Source: Patescibacteria group bacterium (lineage in GTDB: Bacteria > Patescibacteriota > Microgenomatia > Levybacterales > UBA12049). Taken from it: a DNA stretch of 64,000 nt. Both the position numbers and the translations under genes were made by a program. Below the pieces are notes generated by a model. The model saw only the letters and a list, made by a program, of their open reading frames with translations, did not search any database and was not told the DNA's origin. This document shows positions 38,270 to 60,625 of this stretch, in pieces. Positions within the stretch are counted from its first letter, which is position 1, and each line of letters starts with the position of its first letter. The stretch is from the NCBI GenBank assembly GCA_038062115.1, contig JBBTXS010000004.1, positions 69,009-133,008 of the forward strand. Reading direction: 5' to 3'.

Positions 38270-39472
38270 ATGTTGATTGGTATTGACGGCAACGAGGCTA
38301 ATGTAGAAAAAAGAGTTGGGGTTGGAGAATACTCCTTTGAACTACTTCGGCAGCTCAAAGAATCTAGAATTCAGAATCTAGAATTCAGAATCTATTTAAA
38401 AAGAAAACCTCAAGATGATTTTCCAAAAGAATCCACAAACTGGCAATATCGAATTATCGGACCGCGCAAACTGTGGACGCAGATAGGATTACCATTTGAT
38501 TTGTATTTCCATAAACCAAAACCCGATGTGTTTTTTACACCCACCCATTATGCTCCACGCTTTTCTCCTATTTCAACTGTAATTTCAGTAATGGATTTAT
38601 CCTACATCCATTTTCCTGAGATGTTTAAACCTTCAGATTTGTATCAGCTTAAGAATTGGACGGGATATTCAGTGAGAAATGCAAAAAAGATCTTAACTAT
38701 CAGCAGAGCCAGTAAAGATGATATAATCAAATTGCATCAAGTGTTAGAAGAGAAGGTGGTAGTTACTTATCCAGGAATAAAAGTCAAAAGTCAAATGTCT
38801 CCGCCAAAGGCGGATCAGCCTCTGGCTGAAAAATCCAAAATGCAAAGTTCAAAAGTGCTTAAAGAAAAATATAAGATTGAAGGGGATTATATTTTGTTTG
38901 TGGGGACGCTGCAGCCGAGGAAGAATATTGTGAGGCTTATTGAAGCATTCTCAAGGATTATACACCCCCGAGGTGTGCGTGCCGTCGCAAACCACCTCGG
39001 GGGTGGCCGAATGGACTCCCCCGAGGTGAACTATTTGGTCATTGTTGGTAAAAAGGGATGGTTATACGGGGAGATATTTGAGGCTCCTAAGAAGTTTGGA
39101 GTAGAAGATAGAGTTAAGTTTTTAGATTTTGTTCCCGATGAAGATCTTCCTCTTTTTTATCAAAATGCTCTTTGCTTTGTTTTGCCAAGTCTATATGAAG
39201 GGTTTGGTTTGCCGGTTTTGGAAGCAATGCAATACGGCTGCCCTGTAATTACAAGTAATGTCAGTAGTCTTCCCGAGGCAGGAGGAGATGCGGCACTTTA
39301 TGTAAATCCGCTGGATGTTGAGGACATTAAAAAAAATTTAGAATTCATAATTCAGAGTTCAGAATTACGTAAAAAGCTTATCGAAAAAGGATATAAACAA
39401 GTTAAAAAGTTTAGTTGGGAGAAAACAGCGAGAGAAACTTTGAGCGTATTGGAGGACGTGGCGAGAACTTGA
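38270..39472 (+). CDS. glycosyltransferase family 4 carrying four in-frame repeat-derived segments
   Basis: [42 protein letters not shown]. Paralog of 47727 and 59477. Confidence 0.85.
38363..38390. repeat. 7-nt array TCTAGAA TTCAGAA x2 (perfect 14-mer x2), in-frame
   Basis: Read directly. Translates as [10 protein letters not shown]. Only this reading frame of the array lacks stops. Confidence 0.85.
38780..38857. repeat. 78-nt composite: AAAGTCA heptamers, twin GC hairpins TCCGCCaaaGGCGGA + TCAGCCtctGGCTGA, then AAAATSC-type heptamers; in-frame (26 codons)
   Basis: Read directly. Translates as [26 protein letters not shown] in the interdomain linker. Confidence 0.8.
38963..39031. repeat. 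GC-rich 69-nt element, copy E1, in-frame (23 codons)
   Basis: CCCCCGAGGTG (38965-38975) and an identical copy (39018-39028) are both perfectly complementary to CACCTCGGGGG (38993-39003). Translates as [23 protein letters not shown]. Confidence 0.8.
39337..39364. repeat. 7-nt array TTTAGAA TTCATAA TTCAGAG TTCAGAA, in-frame
   Basis: Read directly. Translates as [11 protein letters not shown] near the C-terminus of the GT4. Confidence 0.75.
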
Positions 39473-39475
39473 ATT

Positions 39476-40042
39476 ATGAATAATGAATTAGAAATTAAGG
39501 TTAAAAACAGAATCAAGACAATTTTGCTGGAATTTGCAGTTATGAAATTGCATTTTGTTGGTTTTGTGCCTTCACATCATTTCCGTAGATTTTTCTATAG
39601 ATTAGCTGGAATAAAAATTGGTAAAGGATCAACACTCCATACAGGTACAAGATTTTATAATCCATCTAATATAGAAATTGGGCAAGATTCTATTATTGGT
39701 GAGGGAACTGTTTTAGATGGGAGAGATAAACTAATAATTGGCAATCATGTTGATATTGCCTCAGAAGTTATGATTTATAACTCCGAACACGATGTGCAAA
39801 GCGATGATTTTCGTGCAGTTACTGCACCGGTAATAATTGAAGACTATGTTTTTATCGGTCCTCGTGCAATCATTTTGCCAGGGGTTAAAATCGGTAAAGG
39901 AGCAGTAATTGGGGCTGGGGCTGTGGTTACAAAGGCTGTTAAGAGTTTCGCAATTGTTGGAGGTGTGCCTGCACAAAAGATTGGAGAAAGAAAGATTAAA
40001 GATCTTAAGTATAAATTAGGAAGAGCGGCGTGGTTTAGATAA
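39476..40042 (+). CDS. hexapeptide-repeat (LbH) sugar O-acetyltransferase, WcaF/maltose-acetyltransferase-like
   Basis: IGKGSTLHTGTRF..IGQDSIIGEGTVL..IGNHVDIASEV..IEDYVFIGPRAIILPGVKIGKGAVIGAGAVV hexapeptide repeats. Confidence 0.8.
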   Translation: MNNELEIKVKNRIKTILLEFAVMKLHFVGFVPSHHFRRFFYRLAGIKIGKGSTLHTGTRFYNPSNIEIGQDSIIGEGTVLDGRDKLIIGNHVDIASEVMIYNSEHDVQSDDFRAVTAPVIIEDYVFIGPRAIILPGVKIGKGAVIGAGAVVTKAVKSFAIVGGVPAQKIGERKIKDLKYKLGRAAWFR

Positions 40043-40046
40043 GGAT

Positions 40047-40141
40047 GATTGTTGGATTGCTCAATTGTTTCATTGTTACCTCACCCTAACCCTCTCCTAG
40101 AAGGAGAGGGAACAATTTAGCAATTTAACAATGTAGCAATT
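40047..40141. repeat. intergenic composite palindrome: 8-nt-periodic NATTGYTN arm, GC hairpin CCCTCTCCTagaAGGAGAGGG (40090-40110), inverted ARCAATKT arm
   Basis: Read directly. It fills the whole spacer between the acetyltransferase stop and the GT2 start codon. Confidence 0.8.
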
Positions 40142-41035
40142 ATGACATTTCTATCAATAGTTATTCTTTCCTATAACACAAAAGACTTAACGCTTTCTTG
40201 CTTGCAATCGTTGATAGAACAATACAGAAAGGAGTTAAAAAGTGGGACGGTTGAGATTATTGTTGTTGATAATGCGTCAACTGATGGCTCGGTAGAAAGT
40301 ATTAAGTATTATGTATTAAGTAGTAAGTATAAAGACGTTAGATTAAGGGTTATAGAAAATGACGAGAATTTGGGGTTTGCTAAGGGTTGTAATATAGGGG
40401 CAAAAAAATCAAAAGGGAAATATATTCTTTTTCTAAATTCGGATACACAAGTGCTAGACAAGGGTTTTTTGAAAATGATAGGGTTTTTAGATAGTAATCA
40501 AAAAGTTGGAATTTTGGGAGGAAGGCTTTTAAATCCAGACAATTCACCCCAACCATCTGCTGGAAAATTTTACAATCTTTTTAATTTATTTTTAATGCTT
40601 ATAGGTAGCGAAAGATTTGGATTACTCCGTAAAAGTCCCAAAAATATTGAAAGAGTTGATTGGGTAAGCGGAGCATGTTTGATGATAGGGAAAAGCGTAT
40701 TTGATCAACTAAAGGGATTTGATGAAAATTTCTTTATGTATATCGAAGATATGGAACTGTGCTTTAGAGCAAACAAACTTGGTTTTTTAACTTATTTTTA
40801 TCCAGATATCAAGATAATACATAAAGAACTTGGAAGTAGCAATCGGTCTTTTGCTATAATACACATCTATAAAGGGCTTTTGTATTTTTACTCCAAGCAC
40901 AAAGGTTACTTTCAATATATTATTGCCAAAGTAATGCTAGAAGTGAAAGCTAAAGTCGGAATTGTTGTCGGTTTCCTTATTGGCAATTCTTCCTTAAAGA
41001 AAACTTACATTGAGGCAATAAAATTTAAGATATGA
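40142..41035 (+). CDS. glycosyltransferase family 2
   Basis: LSIVILSYNTKDLT, VVDNASTDGS, LGFAKGCN, LFLNSDT, FFMYIEDMELCFR. Confidence 0.85.
   Translation: MTFLSIVILSYNTKDLTLSCLQSLIEQYRKELKSGTVEIIVVDNASTDGSVESIKYYVLSSKYKDVRLRVIENDENLGFAKGCNIGAKKSKGKYILFLNSDTQVLDKGFLKMIGFLDSNQKVGILGGRLLNPDNSPQPSAGKFYNLFNLFLMLIGSERFGLLRKSPKNIERVDWVSGACLMIGKSVFDQLKGFDENFFMYIEDMELCFRANKLGFLTYFYPDIKIIHKELGSSNRSFAIIHIYKGLLYFYSKHKGYFQYIIAKVMLEVKAKVGIVVGFLIGNSSLKKTYIEAIKFKI
40299..40333. repeat. 7-nt array GTATTAA GTATTAT GTATTAA GTAGTAA GTATAAA, in-frame
   Basis: Read directly. Translates as SIKYYVLSSKYK directly after the DNASTDGS motif. Confidence 0.85.
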
Positions 41036-44000
41036 AAATACTCAGATTTGTTTGGAACAACATTTTATTTTTTATCTCACTTTTTTTGCTTGTCTTTGTT
41101 CCTCTTTACCCAAAATTGCCAATTTTGGATGTACAAAATACGTGGGTTTATGTCCGAGTAGAAGACTTTATTATTACATTTGTAATTCTTATATGGATTG
41201 TTTTGTTTTTGTTTAAAAAAATAACGATCAATACTCCGTTAACCCTACCTATTCTATTATTTTGGATTACTGGCGGAGTATCTCTTCTTCATGCGGTTTT
41301 GGTTATTTTTCCGACCATTGCCAATGTGTTTCCTAATGTTGCATTTCTAAGTTTTTTGCGAAGAATAGAATATGTCTTTCTATTTTTTGTTGCATTTGCT
41401 GGAATGAGGGATAAACGACTCATATATTATATTATTTACGCACTGCCAATTATCCTTCTTGTTGTAGTTGGCTATGGTTTTGGTCAAAAATTCTTTGGAT
41501 TTCCAGCGTTTTTGACAATGAATGAAGAGTTTGCGAAAGGAGTACCAATTCAGCTTTCGCAGTTGTCCAGGGTTCCTTCTACGTTTGCCGGCCATTACGA
41601 TTTAGCAGCGTATTTGGTTTTACTGATTCCAATTCTTGTAAGTTTAGCATTTGGTTTTAAAAATTGGCTTATAAAGATTTTTTTGTTGGGAGTTTCTTCT
41701 TTAGGATTTGTTCTGCTTTTGGAGACGGTATCTCGAGTTTCATTCTCCGTTCTTTTACTTGCTTTGGTAATGCTGTTAATTTTTCAGAAAAAAAGATTGG
41801 TTATTATTTCTCTTTTTGTGCTGACAGTTATATTATTAATTTTATCTCCAAGTCTTTTGCAGCGTTTCGGAAGTACAGTTTCGGAAATTGATGTTTTGGT
41901 GGACGCAAAGACAGGAAGAGCAATAGGTCATGTTACAGAAGTTCCATCTTTGTACTTTGAGGATAAAATTGTTTTGAGAGATTTTGCTCAAAGTGAACAA
42001 AATCCAAAACTTGCCACATCCTCCGCAATTGTTCCAAAGCTTCTTATTCCATCGCCCGCTGTACTTGTTACAGAACCAAACGAGTCCACAGGCGAAAATC
42101 TGCCGCAAGGAACAAGCTATATAAATCTTCCGCTTTCTCCAGTTGTTAAAAAAGTTAATCAATATTTTTATCAAAAAGCAAAAGAAAACAATCCCGAGCA
42201 ATCAACAAAGATTTATATGCTGTATGGAGATTTTCTTATAAAAAAAGCCAAAGCTTACGATCTCTCTTTTACTACAAGATTTCAAGGAGAGTGGCCAAAA
42301 ACCATTACCGCGTTTATGAGAAATATTTTTTTAGGAAGTGGCTATGGGTCTGTTAGTCTTGCTGTTGACAATAATTATCTTAGAATTCTTGGAGAAACCG
42401 GGATTCTTGGGCTTGTTTCATTTCTTTCAATATTTATAGTTGCAGGAATATTCATTAAAAAAATATTACCAGTTGTTGCGTCCCCAGTTGTTAGAAGTTT
42501 TGTTTTAGGATTTGTTGCTGGAACATTTGGACTTTTTCTAAACGCCATCCTAATAGATGTTTTTGAGGCATCGAAGATCGCTTTTTCTTATTGGCTTTTG
42601 ATGGGGGTAACTCTTGGAATTCTAAACTTACACAAAAGTGTAAATGTAGATATTTATAAAGAATTTAAAAACTTGATAACTTCTACCTATGCGATTGTTA
42701 TTTATCTTTTTATTTTAACTATATCTTTATACTTCTCTCTCTCCAATTATTATTTTACAGGCGATGATTTTACATGGTTTAGATGGGTCTCTGATTGTTG
42801 TAATGGTCTTGCTAACAACGGAATTGTTGATTATTTTACCAACGCGAATGGATTTTTCTACAGGCCAGGTACAAAAGTGTATTTTTTTCTTATGCATTCG
42901 GCTTTTTGGCTTAACCAAACAATGTATCATTTGGTATCCCTAATTTTGCATTTTTCCGTTGCGGCTCTTTTGTTCTTGATCTTAAAAAGAATATTAAAGA
43001 ATTATTTTTTGTCTGCGGCAGCGGCTATTGTTTTTCTTATTTTAAGTGGGCATCATGAAGCAATTTTTTGGATTTCCGCAACAGGCTTTCTTTTTAATGC
43101 TTTTTTTGCCCTTTTGAGTCTTCTTTTCTTTATTTACTGGAAAGAGAATAAAAAAAATATATACCTTTTAATTGCTTTTGTTGCAGTTTTTTTAAGCCTG
43201 CTGTTTCACGAGCTGGGCGTTATAGCGCCTTTACTTATAATCCTTTATGATTCTGTTTTTGGGGAAAAATTCAGCCTAAGCAATTTATATAAAAAATCCT
43301 ATTATTATATTTTGATTTTTCCGATAATCCCTTATTTGATTTTACGCTTTATCGCAAAAAGCCATTGGTTTAGCGGAGATTATAGTTATAACATTTTTAA
43401 TCTTCCTTATAATTTTATTGGGAATACAATGGGTTATTTGGGACTTTCTGTTTTTGGGCCTTTGTTTTTAACAATATATAATAGCATCAGAAATTTTTCT
43501 AAAGGAAATTTAGGGATAGCATTATTAGCATCAATAGTAATAATTTTCGCAGCTTTCTTTCTATGGAAATGGCTTATGAAAGCTTTGACAAAGGATGATA
43601 GCAGGATTGTTGTTTTTGGAGTCCTGTTTTTTGCAATTTCCCTGTTACCGTTTTTGGGACTGGGAACAATAACTTCCCGCTATAGTTATCTTTCCTCGGT
43701 TGGACTTGCAATTCTTTTAGCATTTTTTATTAAAAAACTATATAAGTATTTGATATTGAGCAACGAGAAGTACATTGCTGTTTCGATAGTTACTATAATA
43801 GTAATAATATTTTTAGCTAATCAGGTTTTTCAATTACAAAAAATAAATTCAGATTGGAAAACAGCAGGCGAGAAATCTAAAAGATTTGTTGTATCTCTTG
43901 AAGAAATGTACGAAAGAGAATGGAAAAATGACTCTCTAAAATTTTATTTTGTTGATGTTCCCATACGCAATGGAGAAGCATGGATATTTCCAGTAGGGTT

Positions 44001-44187: not shown

Positions 44188-45662
44188 AAAAGATTGAACT
44201 TTTGATATTATTGCTTATTTTAATTGGCGGTTTTTTGGTAAGGCTTTATAGATTTAATAATCCAATTGCAGATTGGCATTCTTGGCGACAGGCAGATACT
44301 TCGGCAGTTTCTAGAAATTTTGTTAAATTTGGGTACGATATCTTGTTTCCCCGCTTTGACGATCTGTCAAATGGCGTATCTCTTTTAGATAATCCTAAGG
44401 GGTATCGTTTTGTAGAGTTTCCTTTCTATAATATTTTGCAAGCTGGTTTTTATCAGATATTCAATCATTTTACAATAGAGCAATGGGGAAGGTTAGTCTC
44501 AATAATTTCTTCTTTAATTGCTGCTGTTTTTCTTTATTTATTGGTAAAAAAACATGTTTCAACACGTGCTGGTTTAATTGCAGCCTTTTTTTATACATTT
44601 GTTCCTTATAACATTTATTATGGAAGAGCCATTATTCCTGATTCATTAATGGTTATGAGTTTTCTTGCTGGTTTGTATTTTTTTGACCAATATCTTGATG
44701 AAAAGGTGAATATTAAGCAATACACTTATTACATCCTAGCAATATTTCTTGTTGCATTATCCCTTCTTATTAAGCCTTTTGTTTTGTTTTTCTTTTTAGC
44801 CTTTTTATATTTAGTATTTATGAAGTTTGGTTTGAAAGGCTTTAAGAAACCAGAGATATGGGTATTTTTTGTTCTAGCTTCTTTACCGTTTTTTCTCTGG
44901 AGAATGTGGATGGAAAACTTCCCAGAAGGAATTCCCAGAAATGATTGGTTATATAACTGGAACAGCATCCGTTTTAAAGGCTCATTTTACTGGTGGATTT
45001 TTGCCGAAAGAATTTCCAAGATGATTCTTGGGTATTGGGGTTTGCCTTTTGTTATTTTAGGAATACTTTTTAAACCAGGAAATCGCGAAAAGTTGCTATT
45101 CTTTACCTTTCTGATATCTTCGCTTATTTATGTTCACGTATTTGCAACCGGTAACGTTCAGCATGATTATTATCAAATTCTTATTACCCCAACTCTTGCT
45201 ATATTTTTTGCAAAAGGAGTTGATGGTGCATTAAAAGCTTCAGGAGAATATTTTAGCTTATGGACTACAAGAGCAGTTATAGTTATTAACATAGTCTTTA
45301 TGTTAATGTTTGGATGGTATGTGATTCGCGATTTTTACGGAGTTCAGCACCCCGCAATAATAGAAGCAGGCAAAGCAGTAGATGAGCTTACGCCAAAAAA
45401 TGCTAAAGTTATTGCGGTTTATAGCGGAGATACGACATTTTTATATCACACTAATCGTCAAGGATGGCCTGTGGTGGAAAGAAGTTTTAGGCAATTTGTA
45501 AATGTAGGGGCAACGCATATTGCATTTGCCAATCCAACAGAAGAAGAACTAAATCTTGCAACTTTATTCGAGCCATTAAAAATAACAGACACGTATGCTA
45601 TTTTTGACCTTAATAAGCCAACCGTCGAGGGCTTGAAGGAATTAAAGAAAAAAGAGAAATGA
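44184..45662 (+). CDS. GT-C glycosyltransferase, ArnT/family 39-like
   Basis: 492 aa, polytopic. The first-loop motif IADWHSWRQADTSAVSRNF is typical of ArnT-like enzymes. ATGA overlap with the upstream gene. Confidence 0.6.
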   Translation: MKKIELLILLLILIGGFLVRLYRFNNPIADWHSWRQADTSAVSRNFVKFGYDILFPRFDDLSNGVSLLDNPKGYRFVEFPFYNILQAGFYQIFNHFTIEQWGRLVSIISSLIAAVFLYLLVKKHVSTRAGLIAAFFYTFVPYNIYYGRAIIPDSLMVMSFLAGLYFFDQYLDEKVNIKQYTYYILAIFLVALSLLIKPFVLFFFLAFLYLVFMKFGLKGFKKPEIWVFFVLASLPFFLWRMWMENFPEGIPRNDWLYNWNSIRFKGSFYWWIFAERISKMILGYWGLPFVILGILFKPGNREKLLFFTFLISSLIYVHVFATGNVQHDYYQILITPTLAIFFAKGVDGALKASGEYFSLWTTRAVIVINIVFMLMFGWYVIRDFYGVQHPAIIEAGKAVDELTPKNAKVIAVYSGDTTFLYHTNRQGWPVVERSFRQFVNVGATHIAFANPTEEELNLATLFEPLKITDTYAIFDLNKPTVEGLKELKKKEK

Positions 45663-46831
45663 GAAAGATATTGTTTCTTACTTATGATTTTCCTTATCCC
45701 GCAAATACCGGGGGCAAGAACAGAGCGTTTAATCTCATAAAGCATGCTAACAAAAACGTAGAGATTCATTTGGCTTCTTTTGTAAGAGATGATTTTAGAA
45801 AAGAATATGAAAAAGAACTAAAAAAAGTAGGAGTTAAGACGATTACGATATTCAAAAGAAGAAAATTAAAAGACATTAGAAATATTAAATTTTTATTTTC
45901 TAAGTCTTCGATCTTTCGACTCCTGTATTATAGAAAAAGCGTTGAAGATTCTATTCTGGATATTGTGAGATCTTTGAAGATAAATGTTGTTCATTTTGAA
46001 TCCTACTACACTTCGTTTTACATTGGGAAAAAGATTAGAGATGTGGGGGCGAAGCAAATATTCGGCACAGAAAACATAGAGCATTTTTTATACAAAGACT
46101 ATGCAAAACACAGCAGTTGGTTGAAGCATTTTATTTTGGATCGCCAAATTAGAAAAATAGAAAATGAAGAGAAGGAATTCTTAAAACTTTCCGATAAAAA
46201 TATTGCTGTAACAGACGATGAGGCAAAGTTTATCCAAAGCATAACTGGTAAAAAATGTAGCATAATTCCAAATGGAGTTGATCTTGATGATTTTACATAT
46301 AATCATCCCTCCAAAAAACTCGCAAACACCCTTCTTTTTATAGGGAATTTTAGTTATTTTCCAAATATTGATGCGATAAATTATTTTTACAACAAAGTTT
46401 TCAAGAAATTGAATGAAAACATAAAACTTTTAATAATCGGAAAAAATGCAGAAAAACTGGATATGTCAAAAGACAGTAGAATTGAAACAATATCTTTTGT
46501 TGAAGACATCAAAGAAGCCTACAATAGAGCTGATATCATGGTGTTTCCAGTTAGGGTTGGAGGAGGAACTAATTTTAAGATACTTGAGGCAATGGCTTAT
46601 GGAATTCCAATAATTGCTGATCCTGCAAGAATCGATAGTTTTGGGGTTAAAGATGGACGCGAGATGTTTTTGGCGAAAACGCCTTTAGAATACGAACAAA
46701 AAATAGATTTACTGCTTAAGGATTTTAGCTTAAGAGAGAAGCTCTCAAAAAATGCTAGGAAACTTGTAGAAAAAGGTTATTCATGGAAACCAATTGGAGA
46801 CAACCTTAATGCTATATGGAAAAACATATGA
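45659..46831 (+). CDS. glycosyltransferase family 4
   Basis: ILFLTYDFPYPANTGGKNR, LFIGNFSYFPN, GGGTNFKILEAMAYGIPIIA. Confidence 0.8.
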   Translation: MRKILFLTYDFPYPANTGGKNRAFNLIKHANKNVEIHLASFVRDDFRKEYEKELKKVGVKTITIFKRRKLKDIRNIKFLFSKSSIFRLLYYRKSVEDSILDIVRSLKINVVHFESYYTSFYIGKKIRDVGAKQIFGTENIEHFLYKDYAKHSSWLKHFILDRQIRKIENEEKEFLKLSDKNIAVTDDEAKFIQSITGKKCSIIPNGVDLDDFTYNHPSKKLANTLLFIGNFSYFPNIDAINYFYNKVFKKLNENIKLLIIGKNAEKLDMSKDSRIETISFVEDIKEAYNRADIMVFPVRVGGGTNFKILEAMAYGIPIIADPARIDSFGVKDGREMFLAKTPLEYEQKIDLLLKDFSLREKLSKNARKLVEKGYSWKPIGDNLNAIWKNI

Positions 46832-47730
46832 ATAAAAAAATTGATGTATCAATTGTTGTAGTTACCTACAACTCGTTTGACACCATAAAAGAATGCATTG
46901 ATTCTATTGAAAAAACCGTTAAAAAAAACTCATTTGAAATTGTTGTTGTTGACAATAATTCATCGGATGGATCCGCAGAGGGTATTAAGTATTATGTATC
47001 AAGTATTAAGTATGAGAACGTTAGAATTATTCCAAATAAAAAAAACATAGGGTTTTCGAAGGCCAACAATCAGGGCGTCAAAATTTCACAAAAAAGCCGT
47101 TATGTTTTGTTTTTGAATCCCGATGCAATCGTTTATGAAAACACTATTGATGGGATGGTGGATTTTATGAACAAAACTCCCAACGCGGGAGCGGCAACGT
47201 GTTTTATAGAGCTTAAAAATGGCAGACTTGACGATTCCTGCCACAGAGGGTTTCCTACACCTTGGAGGTCTTTATGTTATTTTATGGGTTTATCAAAGTT
47301 TTTTCCAAAAAGTAAATTTTTTGCAGGGTATAACATGACCTATCTTGGTCTTAATAAAACTCACGAGATAGATGCTCTGGGAGGGTCTTTTATGCTGATA
47401 AGGCGCGAAATAGGCAAAAGATTGGGTTGGTGGGACGAAGACTTTTTCTTTTATGGAGAAGATATAGACTTTTGTTTTAGAATAAAAGAAATAGGGTATA
47501 AAATATATTTTGTACCCGAATATAAAGCGCTTCATTACAAAGGGGTTTCAAGCGGAATAAAAAAAGTTTCGGAGTCAATAAGCAAAGCAACAAAAGAAAC
47601 AAAACTTTTTGCAACAAAACATAGATTTAACGCGATGCGAATTTTCTACAAGAAACATTATGAAAAAAAGTATCCAAAAATTGTTACGTGGCTTGTTTAT
47701 GGGGCAATTTGGGCTAAAGAACATTTATGA
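46828..47730 (+). CDS. glycosyltransferase family 2
   Basis: VSIVVVTYNSFDT, VVDNNSSDGS, IGFSKANN, LFLNPDA, FFFYGEDIDFCFR. ATG 46828 (ATGA overlap) is preferred over the track start 46816. Confidence 0.85.
   Translation: MNKKIDVSIVVVTYNSFDTIKECIDSIEKTVKKNSFEIVVVDNNSSDGSAEGIKYYVSSIKYENVRIIPNKKNIGFSKANNQGVKISQKSRYVLFLNPDAIVYENTIDGMVDFMNKTPNAGAATCFIELKNGRLDDSCHRGFPTPWRSLCYFMGLSKFFPKSKFFAGYNMTYLGLNKTHEIDALGGSFMLIRREIGKRLGWWDEDFFFYGEDIDFCFRIKEIGYKIYFVPEYKALHYKGVSSGIKKVSESISKATKETKLFATKHRFNAMRIFYKKHYEKKYPKIVTWLVYGAIWAKEHL
46982..47016. repeat. 7-nt array GTATTAA GTATTAT GTATCAA GTATTAA GTATGAG, in-frame
   Basis: Read directly. Translates as GIKYYVSSIKYE. 37 of 42 nt are identical to 40299-40340 by my count. 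Confidence 0.85.
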
Positions 47731-48869
47731 AAATAGGAATTGATGCTAGGCTTTGGAATGAGTCGGGAGTTGGAAAATACACTAGGAATCTTGTTGAACA
47801 GCTTCAGATAATTGATCGCAAGAATGAGTACATGTTGTTTGTTTTAAGTCAAGATAGAAAAAAGATTCTGAATCAAGTTCAGAATGACAATTTTAGCATA
47901 GTAAATGCAGACATAAGGTGGCATACACTGGAAGAGCAGATGAAGTTTTCATCGATAATTAATAAAGAAGATTTGGATTTAATGCACTTTACTTATCCTT
48001 CGGTTCCTATTTTTTACAATAAGCCTTTTATTGTTACAATTCATGATTTAATTTTGCATCATTTTCCGACAGGAGAAGCCTCAACTTTGGCTTTGCCTTT
48101 ATATTATTTAAAGCACTTCGCATACAAATTAGTGATTTTGCAAGCAGCAAAAAAGGCAAAAAGAATTATTGCAGTATCAAAGGCTACAAAAAAGGAGATT
48201 ATTGACCATCTTAGAGTACCAGAAAAAAAAGTAGTGGTAATATATGAAGGGGTAAGTAACGAGATTACAAATCCAAAATCTCAAATTCCAAATAAATCCC
48301 AAAATCCTAAATACAAAATACTTAATACTAAATACTTTTTGTACGTTGGGAATGCATATCCGCACAAGAACCTAGAGCGAATGCTTATGGCATTCGCAAG
48401 TATTAAGTATAGAGTATTAAGTATAAAGTTGGTTTTTGTTGGCAGAGAGGATTATTTTTACAAAAGATTAAAAGAAAAGGTAAAAAATATGGGTTTAGGA
48501 AAATCAGTGAATTTTTTAGGAGAAGTTAGCGATGATGAATTGATCTGTCTTTATAGAGATGCGAGAGCATTAGTTATTCCATCCTTGATGGAAGGGTTTG
48601 GGCTTCCAGCGTTGGAAGCCATGGCAAATAAATGTTTAGTTTTAGCATCAGATATTCCTTCGTTGAAAGAGGTCTGCGGAAATGCGGCAATTTATTTTGA
48701 TCCTTATGGTATTGATGATATATCAAAAAAAATGATAGAGGTTTACTCTAATGACATAAATCATTATAGTAGCAATATCAACAAAGGTTTTGAAAAAACA
48801 AAAATATTTTCTTGGGAGAAAATGACAAGAGAAACTCTAAAGGTATACGAAAGCTGCGTTGGCGGCTGA
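47727..48869 (+). CDS. glycosyltransferase family 4 carrying at least three in-frame repeat-derived segments
   Basis: MKIGIDARLWNESGVGKYT, LYVGNAYPHKN, PSLMEGFGLPALEAMANKCLVLASDIPSLKE. Confidence 0.85.
   Translation: MKIGIDARLWNESGVGKYTRNLVEQLQIIDRKNEYMLFVLSQDRKKILNQVQNDNFSIVNADIRWHTLEEQMKFSSIINKEDLDLMHFTYPSVPIFYNKPFIVTIHDLILHHFPTGEASTLALPLYYLKHFAYKLVILQAAKKAKRIIAVSKATKKEIIDHLRVPEKKVVVIYEGVSNEITNPKSQIPNKSQNPKYKILNTKYFLYVGNAYPHKNLERMLMAFASIKYRVLSIKLVFVGREDYFYKRLKEKVKNMGLGKSVNFLGEVSDDELICLYRDARALVIPSLMEGFGLPALEAMANKCLVLASDIPSLKEVCGNAAIYFDPYGIDDISKKMIEVYSNDINHYSSNINKGFEKTKIFSWEKMTRETLKVYESCVGG
47875..47902. repeat. half-unit of the GTCATT/ATGACAATT palindromic family (hairpin ATTCTGAA-tcaag-TTCAGAAT + GACAATT end), in-frame
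   Basis: Read directly. Translates as ILNQVQNDNF. Confidence 0.7.
48267..48334. repeat. composite repeat: AAATCY heptamers + AAATAAATCCCAAAATCC + four reverse-orientation GTATTAA-family units (TAAATAC AAAATAC TTAATAC TAAATAC); in-frame
   Basis: Read directly. Translates as NPKSQIPNKSQNPKYKILNTKY in the interdomain linker. Confidence 0.8.
48400..48427. repeat. 7-nt array GTATTAA GTATAGA GTATTAA GTATAAA, in-frame
   Basis: Read directly. Translates as SIKYRVLSIK, at the same alignment position as the GC-rich element E1 in the 38270 paralog. Confidence 0.85.
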
Positions 48870-48874: not shown

Positions 48875-48955
48875 ACCGCAGGTGTAATCGTATCTACACC
48901 TCGGATGGTGGCAGCCCTGAGCGAAGTCGAAGGGCATGACTCCTCCGAGGTGGAC
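48875..48955. repeat. GC-rich element, copy E2 (intergenic, chimeric)
   Basis: CCGCAGGTGTA..TACACCTCGG hairpin, then GGTGG, then AGCCCTGAGCGAAGTCGAAGGGC, then GACTCCTCCGAGGTGGAC. Starts 6 nt after the GT4 stop. Confidence 0.7.
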
Positions 48956-49183
48956 ATCAGATTGGGAATGCTATTGTGGTTTGGTAGTCGTACTTGGATT
49001 TAGTGTTTAGCGGACCGTATTTATATGTTTCAAAGACCAAGCCTCTAAGTTTTATCTTCTGGCTTTCTATATACGAAAACAGCTTTTGGTAAATGAGAAT
49101 TAAATATTTATATGGACCATTATAGTTAAATGCTAAGACTTTGGTTTTGGGGTAAGGTTTGAAATAAAAATCATTATGTTGGT

Positions 49184-49254
49184 ATTCACCTTGGAGGAGC
49201 CGAGGTCGTTGCCTCGTCACCTCCGAGGTGTTGCGGAGCGATTCTTCGAAGGTG
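49184..49254. repeat. GC-rich element, copy E3 (reverse orientation, about 71 nt, degenerate)
   Basis: The reverse complement aligns with 63288-63356 over its whole length (shared ...GAGGCARCGACCTCG.CTCCT.C.AGG.GAA). Confidence 0.7.
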
Positions 49255-49274
49255 GAGCTTAGTATAAAGGTTAT

Positions 49275-49383
49275 GGCTGGGTCATAAATACCCATTTGTC
49301 ATTCCGAGCGAGCGTGAGCGAGTCGAGGAATCTCGTTGAAGGAGATTTCTCGGCAAGCTCGAAATGACAATTGTGACCCAGTC
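49275..49383. mobile_element. MITE-like nested palindromic element flanked by an 11-bp direct repeat
   Basis: Outer inverted repeat GGCTGGGTCA / TGACCCAGTC. Inner GTCATTCCGAG...CTCGAAATGAC (49298-49368). ATAAAGGTTAT occurs at 49264-49274 and again at 49384-49394. Confidence 0.5.
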
Positions 49384-50536: not shown

Positions 50537-50632
50537 AACAACTTTATTGTAAACAAAATATTCAAAGATTGCAAGCGGTTGTGGGTTCGACGGGCTGCTT
50601 CTTATCATGATAAAATAGGCGGAGTATTTACA

Positions 50633-51778
50633 ATGAAAATTGCATTGGTGTATGATCGGGTAAATAAGTGGGGAGGGGCAGAGAGAGTGCTTTTGGCATT
50701 GCATGAATTATTTCCAGATGCACCTATTTACACTTCGGTTTACAATCCAATAACTGCATCTTGGGCTAAAACTTTCGATGTTAGAAGTTCATTCTTGCAG
50801 AAATTTCCTTTGGCATCTATAGCTCATGAGTTATATGCGGTCTTGATGCCCATTGCCTTTGAAAGTTTTTCTTTTGACCAATATGATCTTGTAATTTCAG
50901 TTACGAGTGAGGCTGCAAAAGGGATAATAACCAAACCAAAAACAAAGCATATTTGCTATTGTCTAACTCCAACCCGTTATCTTTGGAGTGCTTACGATGA
51001 TTACTTTAGAAATCCCTTATTGCGATTTCTATCAAAACCAGTAGTTTCGTATCTTAGGACTTGGGATAAAATTGCAGCGCAAAGGCCAGATGCGTACGTT
51101 GCAATTTCTCAAGAGGTCAAAAGAAGAATTAAAAAATATTATGGGAGAGAGTCAGTGGTTGTATACCCGCCAGTAGACATCAGTAGTATGTATCATGTAT
51201 CAAGTATTAAGTATAAAAAAAATGCAAATGAAATACATAATACAAACTACATACTACATAATACTGTCGATTACTTCCTCATCGTCTCTCGGCTTGTTCC
51301 ATACAAACGAATTGATATTGCGATTAGAGCATTTAATAAGCTTAGACTTCCATTAAAAATTATTGGCGTAGGGTCACAAGAAAAGTATCTTAAAAGCATC
51401 AGTAGCCCAACTATAGAATTCCTTGGCAACTTGACTGAAGATGAGTTAGTAAGCTATTATAAGGGATGTCGTGCTTTAATTTTTGTAGGTGTTGAAGATT
51501 TTGGTCTTACTGTTTTGGAGGCACAGAGTTTTGGAAAACCCGTGATTGCGTTTCGCGGAGGCGGTACACTGGAGACTATAAAAGAAGGAAAAACTGGTGA
51601 GTTTTTTAGTCAACAAAATCCAAAATCACTTACAGATGTGCTTAAAAGATTCGATGAAAGAAAATATAAAAGTACTGACTGCATAGAGAATGCTAAAAAG
51701 TTTTCGTTTGAAAGATTTAAAGAAAAGCTTATGGATGTCGTTGCGAGGAGTTTAGCGACGAAGCAATCTCAAATTTGA
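50633..51778 (+). CDS. glycosyltransferase family 4
   Basis: MKIALVYDRVNKWGGAERVL, FLIVSRLVPYKR, VGVEDFGLTVLEAQSFGKPVIA. Start trimmed from 50579 to ATG 50633. The last 14 codons and the stop lie inside a palindromic repeat. Confidence 0.85.
   Translation: MKIALVYDRVNKWGGAERVLLALHELFPDAPIYTSVYNPITASWAKTFDVRSSFLQKFPLASIAHELYAVLMPIAFESFSFDQYDLVISVTSEAAKGIITKPKTKHICYCLTPTRYLWSAYDDYFRNPLLRFLSKPVVSYLRTWDKIAAQRPDAYVAISQEVKRRIKKYYGRESVVVYPPVDISSMYHVSSIKYKKNANEIHNTNYILHNTVDYFLIVSRLVPYKRIDIAIRAFNKLRLPLKIIGVGSQEKYLKSISSPTIEFLGNLTEDELVSYYKGCRALIFVGVEDFGLTVLEAQSFGKPVIAFRGGGTLETIKEGKTGEFFSQQNPKSLTDVLKRFDERKYKSTDCIENAKKFSFERFKEKLMDVVARSLATKQSQI
51183..51265. repeat. composite repeat: five GTATYAA-family units, A-rich spacer, four TACAWAM units; in-frame
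   Basis: Read directly. Translates as SSMYHVSSIKYKKNANEIHNTNYILHNT. Same architecture and orientation as 20416..20483. Confidence 0.85.
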
Positions 51779-51822
51779 TGGGGATTGCTACGCCCTTCGA
51801 CAAGCTCAGGGCTCGCAATGAC
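51737..51822. repeat. GTCGTTGCGAGG...CTCGCAATGAC palindromic element spanning a gene junction
   Basis: Read directly. The left arm encodes VARSLATKQSQI. The TGA stop (51776-51778) lies in the central loop. The right arm ends 10 nt before the manC ATG. Confidence 0.8.
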
Positions 51823-51832
51823 AATTAGACGT

Positions 51833-52915: not shown

Positions 52916-52918
52916 CCT

Positions 52919-56296: not shown

Positions 56297-56299
56297 AAG

Positions 56300-56893: not shown

Positions 56894-57011
56894 ATGTAAC
56901 ATTTTACAACCCTTGACATAAACTGTCATTCTGAACTTAGTTCAGAATCTCATTAGATGCTAAAATGAATTCAGCATGACAATTTGCGTCAGTAACGGTG
57001 AAATGTTACGT
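56894..57011. repeat. nested palindromic element: outer ~31-nt imperfect inverted repeat enclosing GTCATTCTGAACttaGTTCAGAATCTC + GATGCT..AGCATGAC (56925-56980)
   Basis: Read directly. Ends 11 nt before the wzt ATG. The track ORF 56989..57228 (-) is an artefact. Confidence 0.75.
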
Positions 57012-57022
57012 AAAAATTTGCT

Positions 57023-58246
57023 ATGTCCAATTCTATTATTTTAAACGATATTTCCAAAAAATACACTCTTGTCAAAGAGCGGCCGGTGCTTTTGAAAAAT
57101 CTTTTTCTGCCCCCAAAAAAAGAAGAAGTTTGGGCGTTAAAAAATGTTTCCTTAACCATTAAAAAAGGGGAGACGATTGGAATTGTTGGCGATAATGGAT
57201 CAGGAAAATCAACGCTTCTTAAAATCATTGCAGGAATAACTACTCCTACACAAGGAAATGTAAAAGTGAACGGTCGAGTTTCATCACTAATCGAACTCGG
57301 AGCAGGCTTTCACCCAGATCTTACAGGAAAAGAAAATGTATATTTAAACGGACAACTTTTAGGTTTTACCAAAAAAGAACTCGATAAAAAATATAATGAG
57401 ATAGTCGAGTTTACAGATATTGGAGAATATATCAACCAACCGATACGAACGTATTCATCAGGAATGGTTGTCCGTCTCGGCTTCTCAGTCGCCGTTCACC
57501 TCGATCCAGAAATTCTTCTTATTGATGAAGTACTTACTGTTGGGGATGAGGAGTTTCAGAGGAAGTGTATTAGAAAAATTAATATTCTAAGAAAAAATGG
57601 CAAAACAATAATTATGGTGTCTCATGATTTGTCACTGATAAAAATTCTTTGTTCAAAGATTGTTTGGCTTGAACACGGAAAATTTCTTCTTGTTGGTAAT
57701 TCCGAGAAAGTAATCCATTCGTACTTAGATAGACTGACAGAAAAAGAAGAAATAATTTTTTTAGATGAGTCTGCCAAAAAAAACTTATATAGAGGACAAA
57801 ACGACATAGTGTCAGGCAAAATTAAATTTGAAAAAGTAGTTTTACTTAATCAAAAAGGCCTAGAAACAAATAGCTTTGAATCGAATGAGAAAATTGTTAT
57901 AAGAGCAGCATTGAAAACAAATATGCCTATTAATAATCCTATCTTTGGTTTAATAGTGTACAGCGAGAGTGGAGATTATTTAGGTGGTACTAACTCAATC
58001 GCAGACAAAATTCTTGAGCGAATAAACGGTATTAGAGAAGTCGACTATATAATAGAAAGAATCTCGTTATTACCAGGAAAATATTTTCTTGATTTGGTGA
58101 TTAACGATAAAACTGGTAAGAAAATATATAATCGATACGGCAAGATATTACCGCTTTTTGTAAAGGGCTTAAAAAATAAGGATGGCTATCCAGTCTACTC
58201 TGGCCATATTCAAATACCTTGTAAATGGAAATACTATGAATCTTAA
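57023..58246 (+). CDS. wzt: polysaccharide ABC exporter ATPase with C-terminal Wzt-type carbohydrate-binding domain
   Basis: Walker A GDNGSGKST, signature YSSGM, Walker B LLIDEVLTVGD. An extra ~160-aa beta-rich C-terminal domain is present, as in Wzt of capped O-antigen systems. Confidence 0.85.
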   Translation: MSNSIILNDISKKYTLVKERPVLLKNLFLPPKKEEVWALKNVSLTIKKGETIGIVGDNGSGKSTLLKIIAGITTPTQGNVKVNGRVSSLIELGAGFHPDLTGKENVYLNGQLLGFTKKELDKKYNEIVEFTDIGEYINQPIRTYSSGMVVRLGFSVAVHLDPEILLIDEVLTVGDEEFQRKCIRKINILRKNGKTIIMVSHDLSLIKILCSKIVWLEHGKFLLVGNSEKVIHSYLDRLTEKEEIIFLDESAKKNLYRGQNDIVSGKIKFEKVVLLNQKGLETNSFESNEKIVIRAALKTNMPINNPIFGLIVYSESGDYLGGTNSIADKILERINGIREVDYIIERISLLPGKYFLDLVINDKTGKKIYNRYGKILPLFVKGLKNKDGYPVYSGHIQIPCKWKYYES

Positions 58247-59480
58247 GCCTACAGGTGTAATCTGGGCCGGACCAGTTTACAATATTGGAGGATACGGAAA
58301 CGTTTCAAGAAACTATATAAAAGGCCTTGTTAGGATTGGCGTTTCTGTTCGTATATTCAACTTAGATCGCGTAGATTTGGAGATTGGAAAAGACAATATA
58401 AAATTCCTAGATTCTCTTTCCAATACTTATGTTGGCACAAGACCAGTCTTAATCGTCCATTCCCTTCCTCCCCATTTTGATATAGTCAAAATACCAAAAG
58501 TTTACAAAAGAATTGGCTGCACTATATTTGAAACCAACAGGATACCTAAAGTATGGGTAAAACCATGCAATAGAATGGATGAGATTTGGGTACCCTCTCA
58601 TTTTAATCTCAAAACATTTTCTGATTCTGGAGTTAAAAAAGAAAAAATAAAGGTTATCCCATACGCAGTTGATACAAATATTTTTAATCCAAAGATAAAA
58701 CCTCTTCCGTTGCTAAGTCTTAAAAAATTTAAATTTTTGTATGTCTTCAACTATTCTTATCGAAAAGCTCCGGAGATTCTTCTTGAGGCATATCTTAAAG
58801 AGTTTAAGAAAGACGAAGATGTATGCCTTATGCTAAAATCTATCAATACCGACTATCCAAACTTAAAGTTCAATAAAAATCATATAAAAAAGATTATTAC
58901 TAAAATAAGAGGTTCTGGAAACAATTTGCCACAAGTTCATCTTATCGACTCTCCTTCATCTATTGACGAGCTTGCGTCCCTTTATAAAGCAATTGATTGC
59001 TATATATCTGTTGATAGGGCGAATGGTTGGGGTATGCCATGTATGGAGGCTATGGCTGTAGGCAAACCAGCCGCAACTGTAAATTGGAGCGGAAGTACGG
59101 AATTTATGAAAAAGAATAACAGTTTTCTTATATCCCCTAAAAGGCTAGTTGCGGTTGATAAAAAAACTTCAAAAATGCTTCCAATTTATAGTGGCCAAAA
59201 ATGGGCAGACATTGATATAAACAGTCTTAGAAAACTACTAAGATATATTTACCAAAATAAAGATAAAAGGATAGAAATTGCTAGAAATGGCTACAATACG
59301 ATTGTAAACAATTTTTCTATTGAAGCCATCGCGCAAATTACTGCGAGTCAACTAGGTTTCTCGCGTATAAAAATTTATAATAAATTTCTATATTTTATGA
59401 ATAGTCTTTTCGATATCAAACACAAGGGATTGAAAAGATTATTTTTAAGATTATATCGCCAGGTGGAGATAAAGGTATGA
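58236..59480 (+). CDS. glycosyltransferase, GT-B fold (GT4-like)
   Basis: VDRANGWGMPCMEAMAVGKPAATVNWSGSTEF corresponds to the GT4 E-x7-E region. Start trimmed from 58182 to ATG 58236. Confidence 0.55.
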   Translation: MNLKPTGVIWAGPVYNIGGYGNVSRNYIKGLVRIGVSVRIFNLDRVDLEIGKDNIKFLDSLSNTYVGTRPVLIVHSLPPHFDIVKIPKVYKRIGCTIFETNRIPKVWVKPCNRMDEIWVPSHFNLKTFSDSGVKKEKIKVIPYAVDTNIFNPKIKPLPLLSLKKFKFLYVFNYSYRKAPEILLEAYLKEFKKDEDVCLMLKSINTDYPNLKFNKNHIKKIITKIRGSGNNLPQVHLIDSPSSIDELASLYKAIDCYISVDRANGWGMPCMEAMAVGKPAATVNWSGSTEFMKKNNSFLISPKRLVAVDKKTSKMLPIYSGQKWADIDINSLRKLLRYIYQNKDKRIEIARNGYNTIVNNFSIEAIAQITASQLGFSRIKIYNKFLYFMNSLFDIKHKGLKRLFLRLYRQVEIKV

Positions 59481-60625
59481 CTATTGGAATCGATATTAGT
59501 GCTTTAACAATAAAGCGAACTGGGGTTGGTAATTATTCATTATCTGTGCTTGAGTCCCTTCTTTCTTTAGACGAGAAGAATAAGTATGTTCTTTTTGCTT
59601 TTGTCTTTTCGGGAGAATCGCTTATTAAGGAAAGTTCTTTAGTTAAATTTCCAAATGTTACAGTTAAGATATATCGAATGCACAGGGGGCTTTTAAGAAG
59701 ATTGTGGCATTTTATTCCATTTATTTCTGCGGACTTTTTTTATAAAGGAATCGACTTCTTGCATCTTTCGGATATATTTTATTTACCAACCAGAAGAATT
59801 CCAACTTTAGCAACCATATACGATGTAACACCTTCTCTTTTTCCCCATTATCATTATGCTCGCAATATTGAATTCCATAAGAGAAGGAACAAGTTTGTTG
59901 CCCAAAACTCTAAGCTAGTTATCACGCTTTCTCAAAATAGCAAAAAAGATATAAACAATGTTCTTGGTATACCAACCAGTAAAATCCGCGTTATTTCTGG
60001 AGGAATAAGTGATAAGTACTATCCTATCGAAAATAGAACAATTGTTCAGAAGGTTCTTAAAAAATACGATCTTAAAGACGGTGAATATTTTCTTTTTATA
60101 GGTACTATTGAACCGCGCAAAAACATAGAAGGATTTTTGGAAGCCTATGCTAAAATTCGAAATCAATTAAAATCTCCATTTAAAGTTGTAATAATAGGAG
60201 AAAAAGCGTGGGGGTGGGAAAATATACAAAAAAATATAGCGAGACTGAATCTTAAAAAAGATGTACTTGTTACAGGCTACATTTCTGATGATGACCTTGT
60301 TGATATTATAAATGGAGCAAAGCTTTTTATATACCCTTCGTTTTATGAAGGATTTGGATTGCCTGTTTTAGAAGCAATGGCTTGCGGTATTCCAGTTATT
60401 GGCTCCAACACTTCTTCGCTTCCAGAACTTATTGGAGACAGTGGATTTATGGTTGACCCCAACGACCACAATAAATTAGCATCTTATATGTTGCAAATAA
60501 CGTATGATGCCAAACTTTATGCAAAGCTCTCTAAAAAATCCTTGGAACGCGCTAAGTTATTTAGCTGGAAAAGTTCGGCTCAAAAAACACTTAAGGTCTA
60601 CGAAGAAATGAAAAAGTTTATATGA
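59477..60625 (+). CDS. glycosyltransferase family 4 (repeat-free paralog of 38270 and 47727)
   Basis: [63 protein letters not shown]. Confidence 0.85.
   Translation: MTIGIDISALTIKRTGVGNYSLSVLESLLSLDEKNKYVLFAFVFSGESLIKESSLVKFPNVTVKIYRMHRGLLRRLWHFIPFISADFFYKGIDFLHLSDIFYLPTRRIPTLATIYDVTPSLFPHYHYARNIEFHKRRNKFVAQNSKLVITLSQNSKKDINNVLGIPTSKIRVISGGISDKYYPIENRTIVQKVLKKYDLKDGEYFLFIGTIEPRKNIEGFLEAYAKIRNQLKSPFKVVIIGEKAWGWENIQKNIARLNLKKDVLVTGYISDDDLVDIINGAKLFIYPSFYEGFGLPVLEAMACGIPVIGSNTSSLPELIGDSGFMVDPNDHNKLASYMLQITYDAKLYAKLSKKSLERAKLFSWKSSAQKTLKVYEEMKKFI

Follow-up and report, generated by a model that had tools for sequence, protein, structure and literature searches.

In-frame heptamer arrays and GC-rich hairpins at a few recurrent sites of GT4 glycosyltransferases in Candidatus Levybacteria

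The window analysed here is a 64,000-nucleotide stretch of contig JBBTXS010000004.1 (positions 69,009 to 133,008), in which several genes for glycosyltransferases of family 4 (GT4) contain short DNA repeats that are read in frame as protein. Its G+C content is ~33%, ~94% of it is coding, and its top protein matches belong to Candidatus Levybacteria (Microgenomates, Candidate Phyla Radiation (CPR)/Patescibacteria). At least eight genes matching Glycos_transf_1 were identified (38270, 45659, 47727, 50579, 58182, 59477, 60622 and 62672, each named by its start position), and the analysis centres on the following genes:

38270-39472, plus strand: GT4 glycosyltransferase of the GT-B fold, 400 aa, opening a conserved Levybacteria glycan operon (Pfam, AlphaFold2, orthologs)
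47727-48869, plus strand: GT4 glycosyltransferase, 380 aa, closing the same operon (Pfam, AlphaFold2, orthologs)
59477-60625, plus strand: repeat-free GT4 glycosyltransferase, 382 aa, in a Wzt-ABC-type cluster (Pfam)
30361-30909, plus strand: conserved open reading frame (ORF) consisting of an N domain only (Glyco_transf_4), 182 aa (Pfam, orthologs)
50579-51778, plus strand: further GT4 gene, its linker (aa 204-229) carrying an inverted heptamer-array pair
62672-63895, plus strand: further GT4 gene, its linker (aa 204-230) carrying a family-B hairpin
45659-46831, plus strand: GT4 gene of the 38270 operon without repeats, used as internal negative control

The operon runs in the order GT4, hexapeptide transferase, glycosyltransferase family 2 (GT2), 1051-aa protein, PMT_2, GT4, GT2, GT4, and the synteny of 38270 is kept in L081, L082 and L086 (L-numbers denote loci of related genomes, and P-numbers ortholog proteins). 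The products of 38270, 47727 and 59477 match PF00534 (Glycos_transf_1) with E values of 1e-33 to 1e-39, while PF13439 is matched above its cut-off by 47727 and 59477 and only weakly by 38270. AlphaFold2 produced GT-B models with two Rossmann-like domains and a linker for 38270 (pLDDT, the predicted local distance difference test, 85.3) and 47727 (83.4), and the structures found by Foldseek to be closest to the 38270 model were MshA (3c4q; probability 1.00, TM 0.72), BshA, WaaG and PimA. In 35 orthologs of 38270 the residues E310...E318 (EX7E), G17 and R217-K218-N219 are invariant, and the EX7E, Gly-rich loop and RKN-type motifs can be aligned in all three proteins. On this basis the three are assigned to the retaining GT4/GT-B glycosyltransferases, and transfer activity is predicted. 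The first-pass annotation had described them as clear paralogs; their ORFs, the motifs quoted for them and the Glycos_transf_1/Glyco_transf_4 matches are indeed present, but although the three are mutual best matches among the GT4s of the window, pairwise identity is only ~30-35% and each belongs to a separate orthologous family, such that the shared motifs stand, whereas to call the genes clear paralogs is generous.

Two kinds of repeat, tandem heptamer arrays and GC-rich hairpins of 28-90 nt, are read in frame in 38270 and 47727; two families of such hairpins, A and B, are definable in the window. Every repeat listed by the first-pass annotation for 38270, 47727 and 30361 was recovered by Tandem Repeats Finder (TRF), motif and palindrome scans, comprising two arrays at 30500-30554 in ORF 30361, located after beta2, and the following segments:

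38359-38394, plus strand: perfect tandem repeat of the 14-nt unit AGAATCTAGAATTC x2.6 (two heptamers; 100% match), aa 30-42 of 38270 (TRF)
38779-38858, plus strand: linker composite of 38270, with AAAAGTC x3 (38779-38799), a GC double hairpin (38801-38828), then heptamers
38963-39028, plus strand: family-B hairpin element of 66 nt in 38270, in frame (22 residues), fold z = -4.0
39335-39366, plus strand: heptamer-like array AATTCAG x4.6 (11 residues) inside helix H350-362 of 38270 (TRF)
47863-47893, plus strand: palindromic remnant of a family-A terminal inverted repeat (TIR) in 47727, ATTCTGAA-TCAAG-TTCAGAATGACA, ending in TCAGAATGACA and kept in most orthologs
48268-48336, plus strand: linker heptamer arrays of 47727, CAAATCC-type then AAATACT x5 (TNPKSQIPNKSQNPKYKILNTKYF), running into strand Cbeta1
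48398-48429, plus strand: site-3 heptamer array of 47727, AAGTATT/AAGTATA x4.6 (ASIKYRVLSIKL) (TRF)

The four segments proposed for 38270 are all present, but two of them are not insertions. The array at 38359-38394 encodes the end of helix alpha1, a loop and strand beta2 (E38-43), and that at 39335-39366 forms part of a helix; both have pLDDT values of 85-95 and neither differs in length from its orthologs. At the former, site 1, the units of the window (TCTAGAATTCAGAA x2.6) and of L083 (TTTAGAATTCAGAA x2) encode the same peptide, the L083 segment reading TTAGAATTCAGAAT x2, a concerted change relative to the window. True insertions relative to many orthologs, judged by alignment and model, are the linker and site 3 of 38270 (the latter between helix Calpha1 and strand LVIVGK) and the linker of 47727. 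These regions have pLDDT below 50, and such values are found only at aa 174-185 (linker) and 237-249 (site 3) of the 38270 model and at aa 175-197 (linker) of the 47727 model. The site-3 array of 47727 covers a helix end, a loop and the start of strand E234-238 and adds ~3 residues, while the family-A remnant at 47863-47893 is read as ILNQVQNDN at the end of helix alpha2 and in the loop before beta3. The expectation that structure prediction would place the segments in loops was thus borne out for both linkers and for site 3 of 38270, and failed for 38359 and 39335. In the models the true inserts occupy low-confidence helix-to-strand loops and the linker, and Rossmann-fold topology would place them away from the substrate cleft. 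Of the three alignment positions said to be shared, the linker and site 3 are common to the two genes; the first is not homologous, being located between alpha1 and beta2 in 38270 but one beta-alpha unit later, in the alpha2-to-beta3 region, in 47727 and 30361. Different repeat classes do occupy one position: at site 3, 38270 has a GC element and 47727 a heptamer array.

Within the 38270 linker, the 28-nt double hairpin, CCGCCAAAGGCGG/CAGCCTCTGGCTG, is embedded between heptamer units, those on its 3' side being AAAATCC, AAAATGC, AAAGTTC and AAAAGTG, and a 10-residue peptide of this linker recurs in P0005 and P0102. In P0102, a member of the 38270 family, the N domain has diverged much further than the C domain (44-49% against 72-77%). 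In 47727, the site-3 array is complementary to the array at 48302-48336 of the same gene. The linker (AATACTT) and site-3 (AAGTATT) arrays (48300-48430) pair into a long stem (z = -5.4) bracketing the conserved YFLYVGNAYPHKN...AF coding segment, a pairing not kept in the L082 ortholog.

That repeat segments concentrate in a few loops and the linker emerges far better from ortholog alignments than from the trio. For 38270, first 35 and later 120 Levybacteria orthologs (59-94% identity) were aligned, and 47727 was treated likewise; figures per site are shares of all non-core residues. Protein lengths range from 360 to 429 aa in the 38270 family and from 361 to 440 aa in the 47727 family, and three sites hold 79-88% of this length variation: a helix-to-strand loop of the N domain, the linker between the domains, and the loop that follows the first helix of the C domain (EAFxxI), or site 3. 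In the 38270 family the N-domain loop (after residues 32-36) contributes 14%, the linker (174-189) 33% and site 3 (230-249) 41%, for a total of 88%; in the 47727 family the corresponding shares are 10% (after residues 49-53), 36% and 33%, with a further 11% in C-terminal tails. Inserts of at least 5 aa are present in the linker of 54/121 sequences of the former family and 79/120 of the latter, and at site 3 of 48/121 and 37/120, respectively. In the count made for the trees, site 3 is occupied in 43/121 and 37/120, by several peptide types across orthologs. Presence or absence at site 3 is homoplastic, requiring at least 25 (38270) and at least 22 (47727) state changes on neighbour-joining trees, which are crude, so that these counts are rough minima. 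This pattern is beyond the reach of a single ancestral insertion.

Segment lengths show modes 7 aa apart, equal to three heptamers, at 19 and 26 aa in the 47727 linker and at 14 and 21 aa in site 1 of 38270. These steps were set aside as evidence of unit gain or loss, the histograms being uncorrected for phylogeny. Copy-number variants were absent from clusters of at least 90% identity, which have 1-3 members each. A profile scan of genome contigs with the 38270 alignment returned at least 11 orthologs among the matches listed, most of which were distant GT4s of other phyla, and long tblastn matches in L009 and L041, considered as large insertions, proved instead to be merged frames or adjoining ORFs. 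One protein of the 47727 family, P0183, is a chimera, identical to P0164 from residue 1 to ~154 and to P0136 thereafter. Repeats as domain-swap junctions were rejected in this instance, since the break falls in the conserved ITVSNATK, upstream of the linker repeats.

At the DNA level, site 3 is empty in the 38270 orthologs of L082, L083, L004 and L002 and holds the same family-B element as the window in L081 and L085. Family-A elements, read as CHPE...QND, occupy site 3 in the 38270 ortholog of L086 and in the 47727 orthologs of L082 and L086; hence the same element is found at the homologous site of two GT4 families, even within one genome (L086). The L082 element is 66 nt long, as is that of the window, and has perfect 11-nt TIRs (TGTCATCCTGA/TCAGGATGACA). 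The linkers of all orthologs examined are built of heptamers (e.g. AAAGTCA, AAAACTC, AAATTCG, AAATTCA, AGAATTT and AATACTY) which are uniform within an array and different between orthologs, indicating concerted evolution. GC hairpins nested in arrays, with units continuing on both sides, were found in the linkers of the window, L081 and L086 and at site 1 of L085 and L086, while the GC elements of site 3 lack flanking arrays.

The host genes are under purifying selection. Their core codons have ratios of nonsynonymous to synonymous divergence (dN/dS) of 0.10-0.12, with dS saturated, and since the ORFs are intact and the EX7E and GVG motifs are kept, they are not pseudogenes. Translation through the arrays also avoids stops: an in-frame TAA is expected from (AAGTATT)n, and in the three genes examined the codon at that place is TAT, TAT and AGA; the AATTTCT array likewise avoids TAA. 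It is therefore scarcely credible that the segments are artefacts or decay, through assembly or gene-calling errors, pseudogene formation or chance low complexity in AT-rich DNA, even though the source is a metagenome-assembled genome (MAG) and a near-identical contig, L084, is mosaic. In addition to the intact, stop-avoiding reading frames, which NCBI also annotates as intact genes, the same sites bear repeats in dozens of independent assemblies (NCBI, JGI, ENA and Logan). Moreover, the scan of the window detected 21 period-7 arrays against a mean of 0.65 and a maximum of 4 in Markov shuffles, and 0 arrays of periods 6 and 8, a period-specific excess by which chance and composition are rejected. 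The arrays comprise 3-6 units with a 66-100% match (TRF), 19 of the 21 lie wholly within ORFs, and the period-7 excess extends to related Levybacteria and Microgenomates loci.

The site-3 element is itself conserved at the nucleotide level, its proportion of synonymous differences (pS) being 0.13-0.30, compared with 0.66-0.76 in the flanks. Either nucleotide-level constraint or conversion, or recent independent insertions, would account for this. Constraint would fit segments that are useful to their hosts, as flexible linkers tuning domain closure or partner contacts, or as hairpins affecting mRNA stability, translation pausing or recombination. Such usefulness would also accommodate a change from A:T to G:C that is coordinated over the three arms of the L081 site-3 element, the folding of the elements relative to shuffles (z from -3.3 to -5.4), and the wide recurrence of the same peptide types. 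We nevertheless regard it as unlikely: many conserved orthologs lack the insert at each site, a given site is filled by unrelated sequences, disorder is predicted for the inserts, and low pS has further explanations in gene conversion by other genomic copies or in independent insertion of recent date.

Copies of both hairpin families are dispersed over the window, intergenic ones among them:

49297-49369, no strand assigned: intergenic full copy of family A with ends TGTCATTCCGA...TCGAAATGACA (TIR motif)
36682-36767 and 56924-56981: further intergenic full copies of family A (TIR motif)
47863-47893 (inside gene 47727), 51780-51823 and 63868-63881 (inside gene 62672): half copies of family A (TIR motif)
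48886-48963 and 49180-49256, no strand assigned: intergenic copies of family B, the CACCTCSGAGG hairpin
38963-39028 (in 38270) and 63283-63360 (in 62672): copies of family B inside genes (hairpin motif)

Family A is delimited by the terminal inverted repeats TGTCATTSYGA...AATGACA and measures 58-90 nt, and its TIR motif has 10 matches in the window against 2.15 expected. The sequence CCCCGAGGTG occurs 3 times in 38963-39028 alone and 5 times in the window, against 0.56 expected. All elements fold far better than shuffles, and an Rfam search gave no match at the repeats. Comparison of orthologs revealed no clear target-site duplication at the site-3 junctions; hairpins nested in arrays are flanked by identical heptamers, as would be expected for any in-phase position in an array. 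No transposase was noted among the window ORFs scanned, where no search was made for one with matching TIRs; L082 has an IS1595-type gene. The hairpins behave like dispersed elements of the MITE (miniature inverted-repeat transposable element) or REP (repetitive extragenic palindrome) type, which would imply transposition, whereas the heptamer arrays probably lengthen, shorten and become uniform in situ, through slippage or unequal exchange.

Two repeat-free GT4 families were available as controls. Gene 59477 has no array and no GC island, as the first-pass annotation stated, but the idea that the trio forms a natural experiment does not hold, as the three genes share ~30% identity and belong to different families, and 59477 belongs to a narrow family in a different cluster. 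Its ~11 close relatives are all 381-384 aa long and the next matches, at no more than 44%, come from other phyla; its insert-free state may thus reflect short residence in the lineage rather than a matched absence. Homologs of 59477 in other phyla (GT4, 35-45% identity) show small indels scattered over many loops without a site-3 block, and at least 5 extra linker residues in 6/121. The better internal control is 45659 of the same operon, with lengths of 390, 391 and 390 aa in three genomes and 386-396 aa in 14 full-length representatives at 42-51% identity. Given this near-invariance, the accumulation of inserts is family-specific.

These observations raise the question of what makes a hot spot, for which mutational targeting and selective tolerance are not yet separable; a contribution of targeting is plausible but unproven. 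The sites may be mutational and not only tolerated, with arrays or earlier elements serving as landing pads or recombination substrates, possibly in concert with a filter of selection. We regard this as a plausible but less probable explanation. Evidence in its favour includes the nesting of GC hairpins in arrays, the presence of the same family-A element at site 3 of two GT4 families, the use of just 3 loops, and the constant length of the array-free 45659 family. On the other hand, the GC elements of site 3 have no array flanks, the junctions showed neither a conserved target sequence nor a duplication of the target site, and the breakpoint of the P0183 chimera falls in conserved coding sequence outside the repeats. 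A further observation concerns L084, a Hainich groundwater contig (coverage 3) of which positions 1-1640 are 100% identical to 37395-39033 of the window; identity ends ~5 nt beyond the 3' end of the site-3 GC element, followed by ~5% and later 25-30% divergence, including the region of the 39335 array. This break is either strain recombination at the edge of the element, which would support mutational targeting, or, given the low coverage, an assembly chimera.

Repeats at comparable positions were also identified in other genes of the window. In GT4 50579, an inverted array pair, (AAGTATY)n...(RATACTT)n, lies exactly in the linker (51183-51265; z = -3.8), and in GT4 62672 the linker holds the family-B hairpin at 63283-63360 (z = -4.2). 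Both GT2 families of the operon have an array-encoded, length-variable loop after the DNxSxDGS motif:

40292-40334, plus strand: GT2 gene 40142, AAGTATT array (VESIKYYVLSSKYKD) directly following DNxSxDGS
46982-47013: the same kind of array in the GT2 paralog 46816

The phosphoenolpyruvate (PEP) synthase gene 32168 carries an array at a domain boundary. Inverted heptamer-array pairs separated by an A-rich loop, (AAGTATY)n and (RATACTT)n, occur inside ORFs at 19846-19920, 20412-20484 and 51183-51265 (z -3.3 to -4.3), and the gene at 19216-21291 (691 aa, no Pfam match) contains five arrays. Two further features of the surroundings were recorded. Just upstream of 38270, at 36843-37997, lies an archaeal-type class V fructose-1,6-bisphosphatase (FBPase; PF01950, E = 1.8e-135), for which L082 and L085 have a GlpX-type FBPase in the corresponding neighbourhood; the window gene may represent a non-orthologous displacement. 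Between ORF 61814-62482 and GT4 gene 62672, Rfam identified a DUF3800-V RNA motif at 62516-62612 on the minus strand (49.3 bits; gathering threshold 37.4).

The concentration of arrays in glycosyltransferase and other surface-polysaccharide genes could also suggest contingency loci, in which the gain or loss of units shifts the frame and phase-varies surface-glycan genes; because 7 is not a multiple of three, a one-unit change would switch a gene off or on. ORF 30361 would fit such a model, as it stops (...VIYPGI*) exactly where the linker would start. This 182-aa ORF is, however, itself conserved, with 70-76% amino acid identity in three genomes, where it lies directly upstream of the 38270 ortholog (L081, L083 and L086). 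In the window the two are separated by ~7.4 kb (30906-38270) containing the PEP synthase, the archaeal-type FBPase_3 and other genes. Further, the arrays are short and imperfect, they occupy permissive loops rather than gene 5' ends, one is found in the PEP synthase, and all retrieved orthologs are full length. No frameshifted variants were seen, in clusters of 1-3 members from which the data cannot exclude them. We therefore consider phase variation highly improbable.

The phenomenon appears to extend beyond Levybacteria. A Chloroflexia GT4 (L050:5761-6969, MAG DATEOC010000004.1) has in-frame linker arrays of CAGAAGG x4.9 and AAATCCA x4.6, and an AAATCCG x4.7 array right after its EAY helix (site 3). 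Both sites, as well as the AAATCCR unit family, are shared with the Levybacteria genes. In an adjoining ORF of L050 (7582-7717, 8331-8414) inverted array pairs GATTTTG/AAATCCA are present, and period-7 arrays are frequent in further Chloroflexi loci (L041, L068 and L022). The family-A end, TGTCATYCYGA, occurs as inverted pairs in Moranbacteria (L031:6921-7016) and Chloroflexia (L050:737-810), and family A therefore spans CPR and Chloroflexi. Copies of the GC families were also found in L082, L086, L031 and L050, and in L086 all 6 TIR-motif matches (6/6) are inside called genes, including those of a 1118-aa and a 567-aa protein. With these data one may speculate that arrays and nested hairpins form an active DNA-level system of CPR and Chloroflexi, perhaps related to the short tandemly repeated repetitive (STRR) sequences of cyanobacteria, which continually writes and rewrites protein linkers and loop extensions, seeds insertion and recombination at domain boundaries, and, by concerted evolution, compensatory changes in the stems and low synonymous divergence, keeps its repeats as nucleic-acid elements within genes. 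The L050 arrays at the same two sites, the end of 30361 at the linker and the divergence of L084 at the edge of the site-3 element are consistent with such a system. It seems to us an outside chance; if it exists, it could modularise GT-B enzymes and diversify surface glycans.

The explanation that we consider probable is frequent birth or insertion of repeats, filtered to permissive sites of working enzymes. Two small kinds of repeat, heptamer arrays and GC hairpins, would populate a genome in which almost all DNA is coding, and most new copies would for that reason arise in genes. Purifying selection would then keep only in-frame, stop-free copies where the fold tolerates extra residues; for GT-B enzymes this would mean the linker between the domains and those helix-to-strand loops that face away from the substrate cleft. 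Enzyme function would be kept while the repeats continue to evolve as DNA elements, by slippage of arrays and transposition of hairpins, with tolerance as the main filter, and the outcome would be a few hypervariable sites filled, emptied and refilled many times by different repeat classes. Several points weigh against this explanation. Tolerance alone offers no obvious reason why the repeats use just 3 out of about a dozen helix-to-strand loops, nor for the near-constant length of the 45659 family, which shares the operon and the genomes. Some arrays (38359, 39335 and the end of 48398) encode parts of strands or helices, making ‘loops only’ too simple. Hairpin mobility would be attested by a target-site duplication, a transposase partner or an excision event, none of which was seen, and slippage by copy-number polymorphism of arrays, which was absent from the small clusters. 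Finally, the low synonymous divergence of the site-3 element could denote function rather than selfishness, and the homoplasy counts depend on the crude trees mentioned above.

Hundreds of orthologs of two enzymes with independent in-frame insertions at the same 2-3 sites amount to a rare natural mutational scan of where the GT-B fold tolerates 5-45 extra residues, and illustrate how selfish or slippage-prone DNA becomes protein sequence. The segments also inflate apparent protein divergence and break alignments: a PDB sequence search aligned only downstream of site 3. They could, in turn, mislead annotation and structure prediction in CPR genomes.

Although our search of the open-access literature found no description of in-frame repeats in CPR, each component has known counterparts. 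Heptameric simple-sequence repeats include the cyanobacterial STRRs, GGGAATC in Xanthomonas and GGGGAYT in Nostoc (PMC4692102), and TAACTGA in Beggiatoaceae (PMC4679880); proposals for their origin invoke polymerase slippage, and the arrays of Nostoc, Xanthomonas and Beggiatoaceae are over-represented in intergenic regions (PMC4692102, PMC4679880). Those of the window resemble them as 7-nt tandem arrays with several unit families per genome, frequent inverted pairs and variation between relatives. They differ in that most lie in ORFs and are translated through all three frames, a condition of interest for a repeat so far described mainly as intergenic, and in forming linkers and even parts of strands, with point changes removing in-frame stops. 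A second comparison is offered by phase-variable repeats, likewise short tandem units that are not multiples of three in surface-glycan genes. Haemophilus, Neisseria and Campylobacter have these simple-sequence repeats in glycosyltransferase and surface genes, as long perfect tracts that usually lie near the 5' end and commonly occur as frameshifted alleles, whereas the present arrays are short, imperfect and at permissive loops, with no off alleles among the orthologs seen (for phase-variable repeats see also PMC8262952).

Bacterial MITEs and REPs with intragenic copies are known from Coxiella QMITE, ERIC, BOX and the GTAG/CGTC-tagged REPs (PMC5896051, PMC10969869, PMC3733652). The elements described here are similarly small, with TIRs or a palindromic stem, many copies and occasional in-frame fusion with host ORFs, and family A, at 58-90 nt and with TIRs, falls within the size range of MITEs (about 50-500 bp). 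Unlike in those systems, neither a target-site duplication nor a cognate transposase or REP-associated tyrosine transposase (RAYT) was identified, no search having been aimed at a transposase with matching TIRs. Also, REPs are by definition mostly extragenic, whereas several copies here lie inside ORFs (38963, 63283, 38801 and six in L086), and site-specific recurrence across hundreds of orthologs is unusual.

The closest analogue, by features rather than sequence, is provided by the Rickettsia palindromic elements (RPEs), selfish palindromic repeats lying in frame in protein genes (Ogata et al. 2000, as summarised in PMC10969869). Sequence homology between these families and the elements of the window would not be expected. 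As far as that summary describes them, RPEs share with the present elements the dispersal of hairpin repeats in frame in conserved functional genes, their translation as extra segments, probably also a position where the three-dimensional fold tolerates them, and the existence of intergenic copies of the same families. By the same account, RPEs are ~150 nt long and belong to an intracellular alphaproteobacterium, whereas the elements of this study measure 28-90 nt, are GC-rich in an AT-rich genome, and are found in CPR (Levybacteria) and apparently in Chloroflexia. By analogy, these data are best read as a counterpart of RPEs in a new lineage, supplemented by a further class, the heptamer arrays; the RPE phenomenon would thereby extend to CPR bacteria. 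Relative to RPEs as there summarised, what distinguishes the present case is the repeated use of one site by several families across orthologs, together with the co-occurrence of heptamer arrays, which often host the hairpins.

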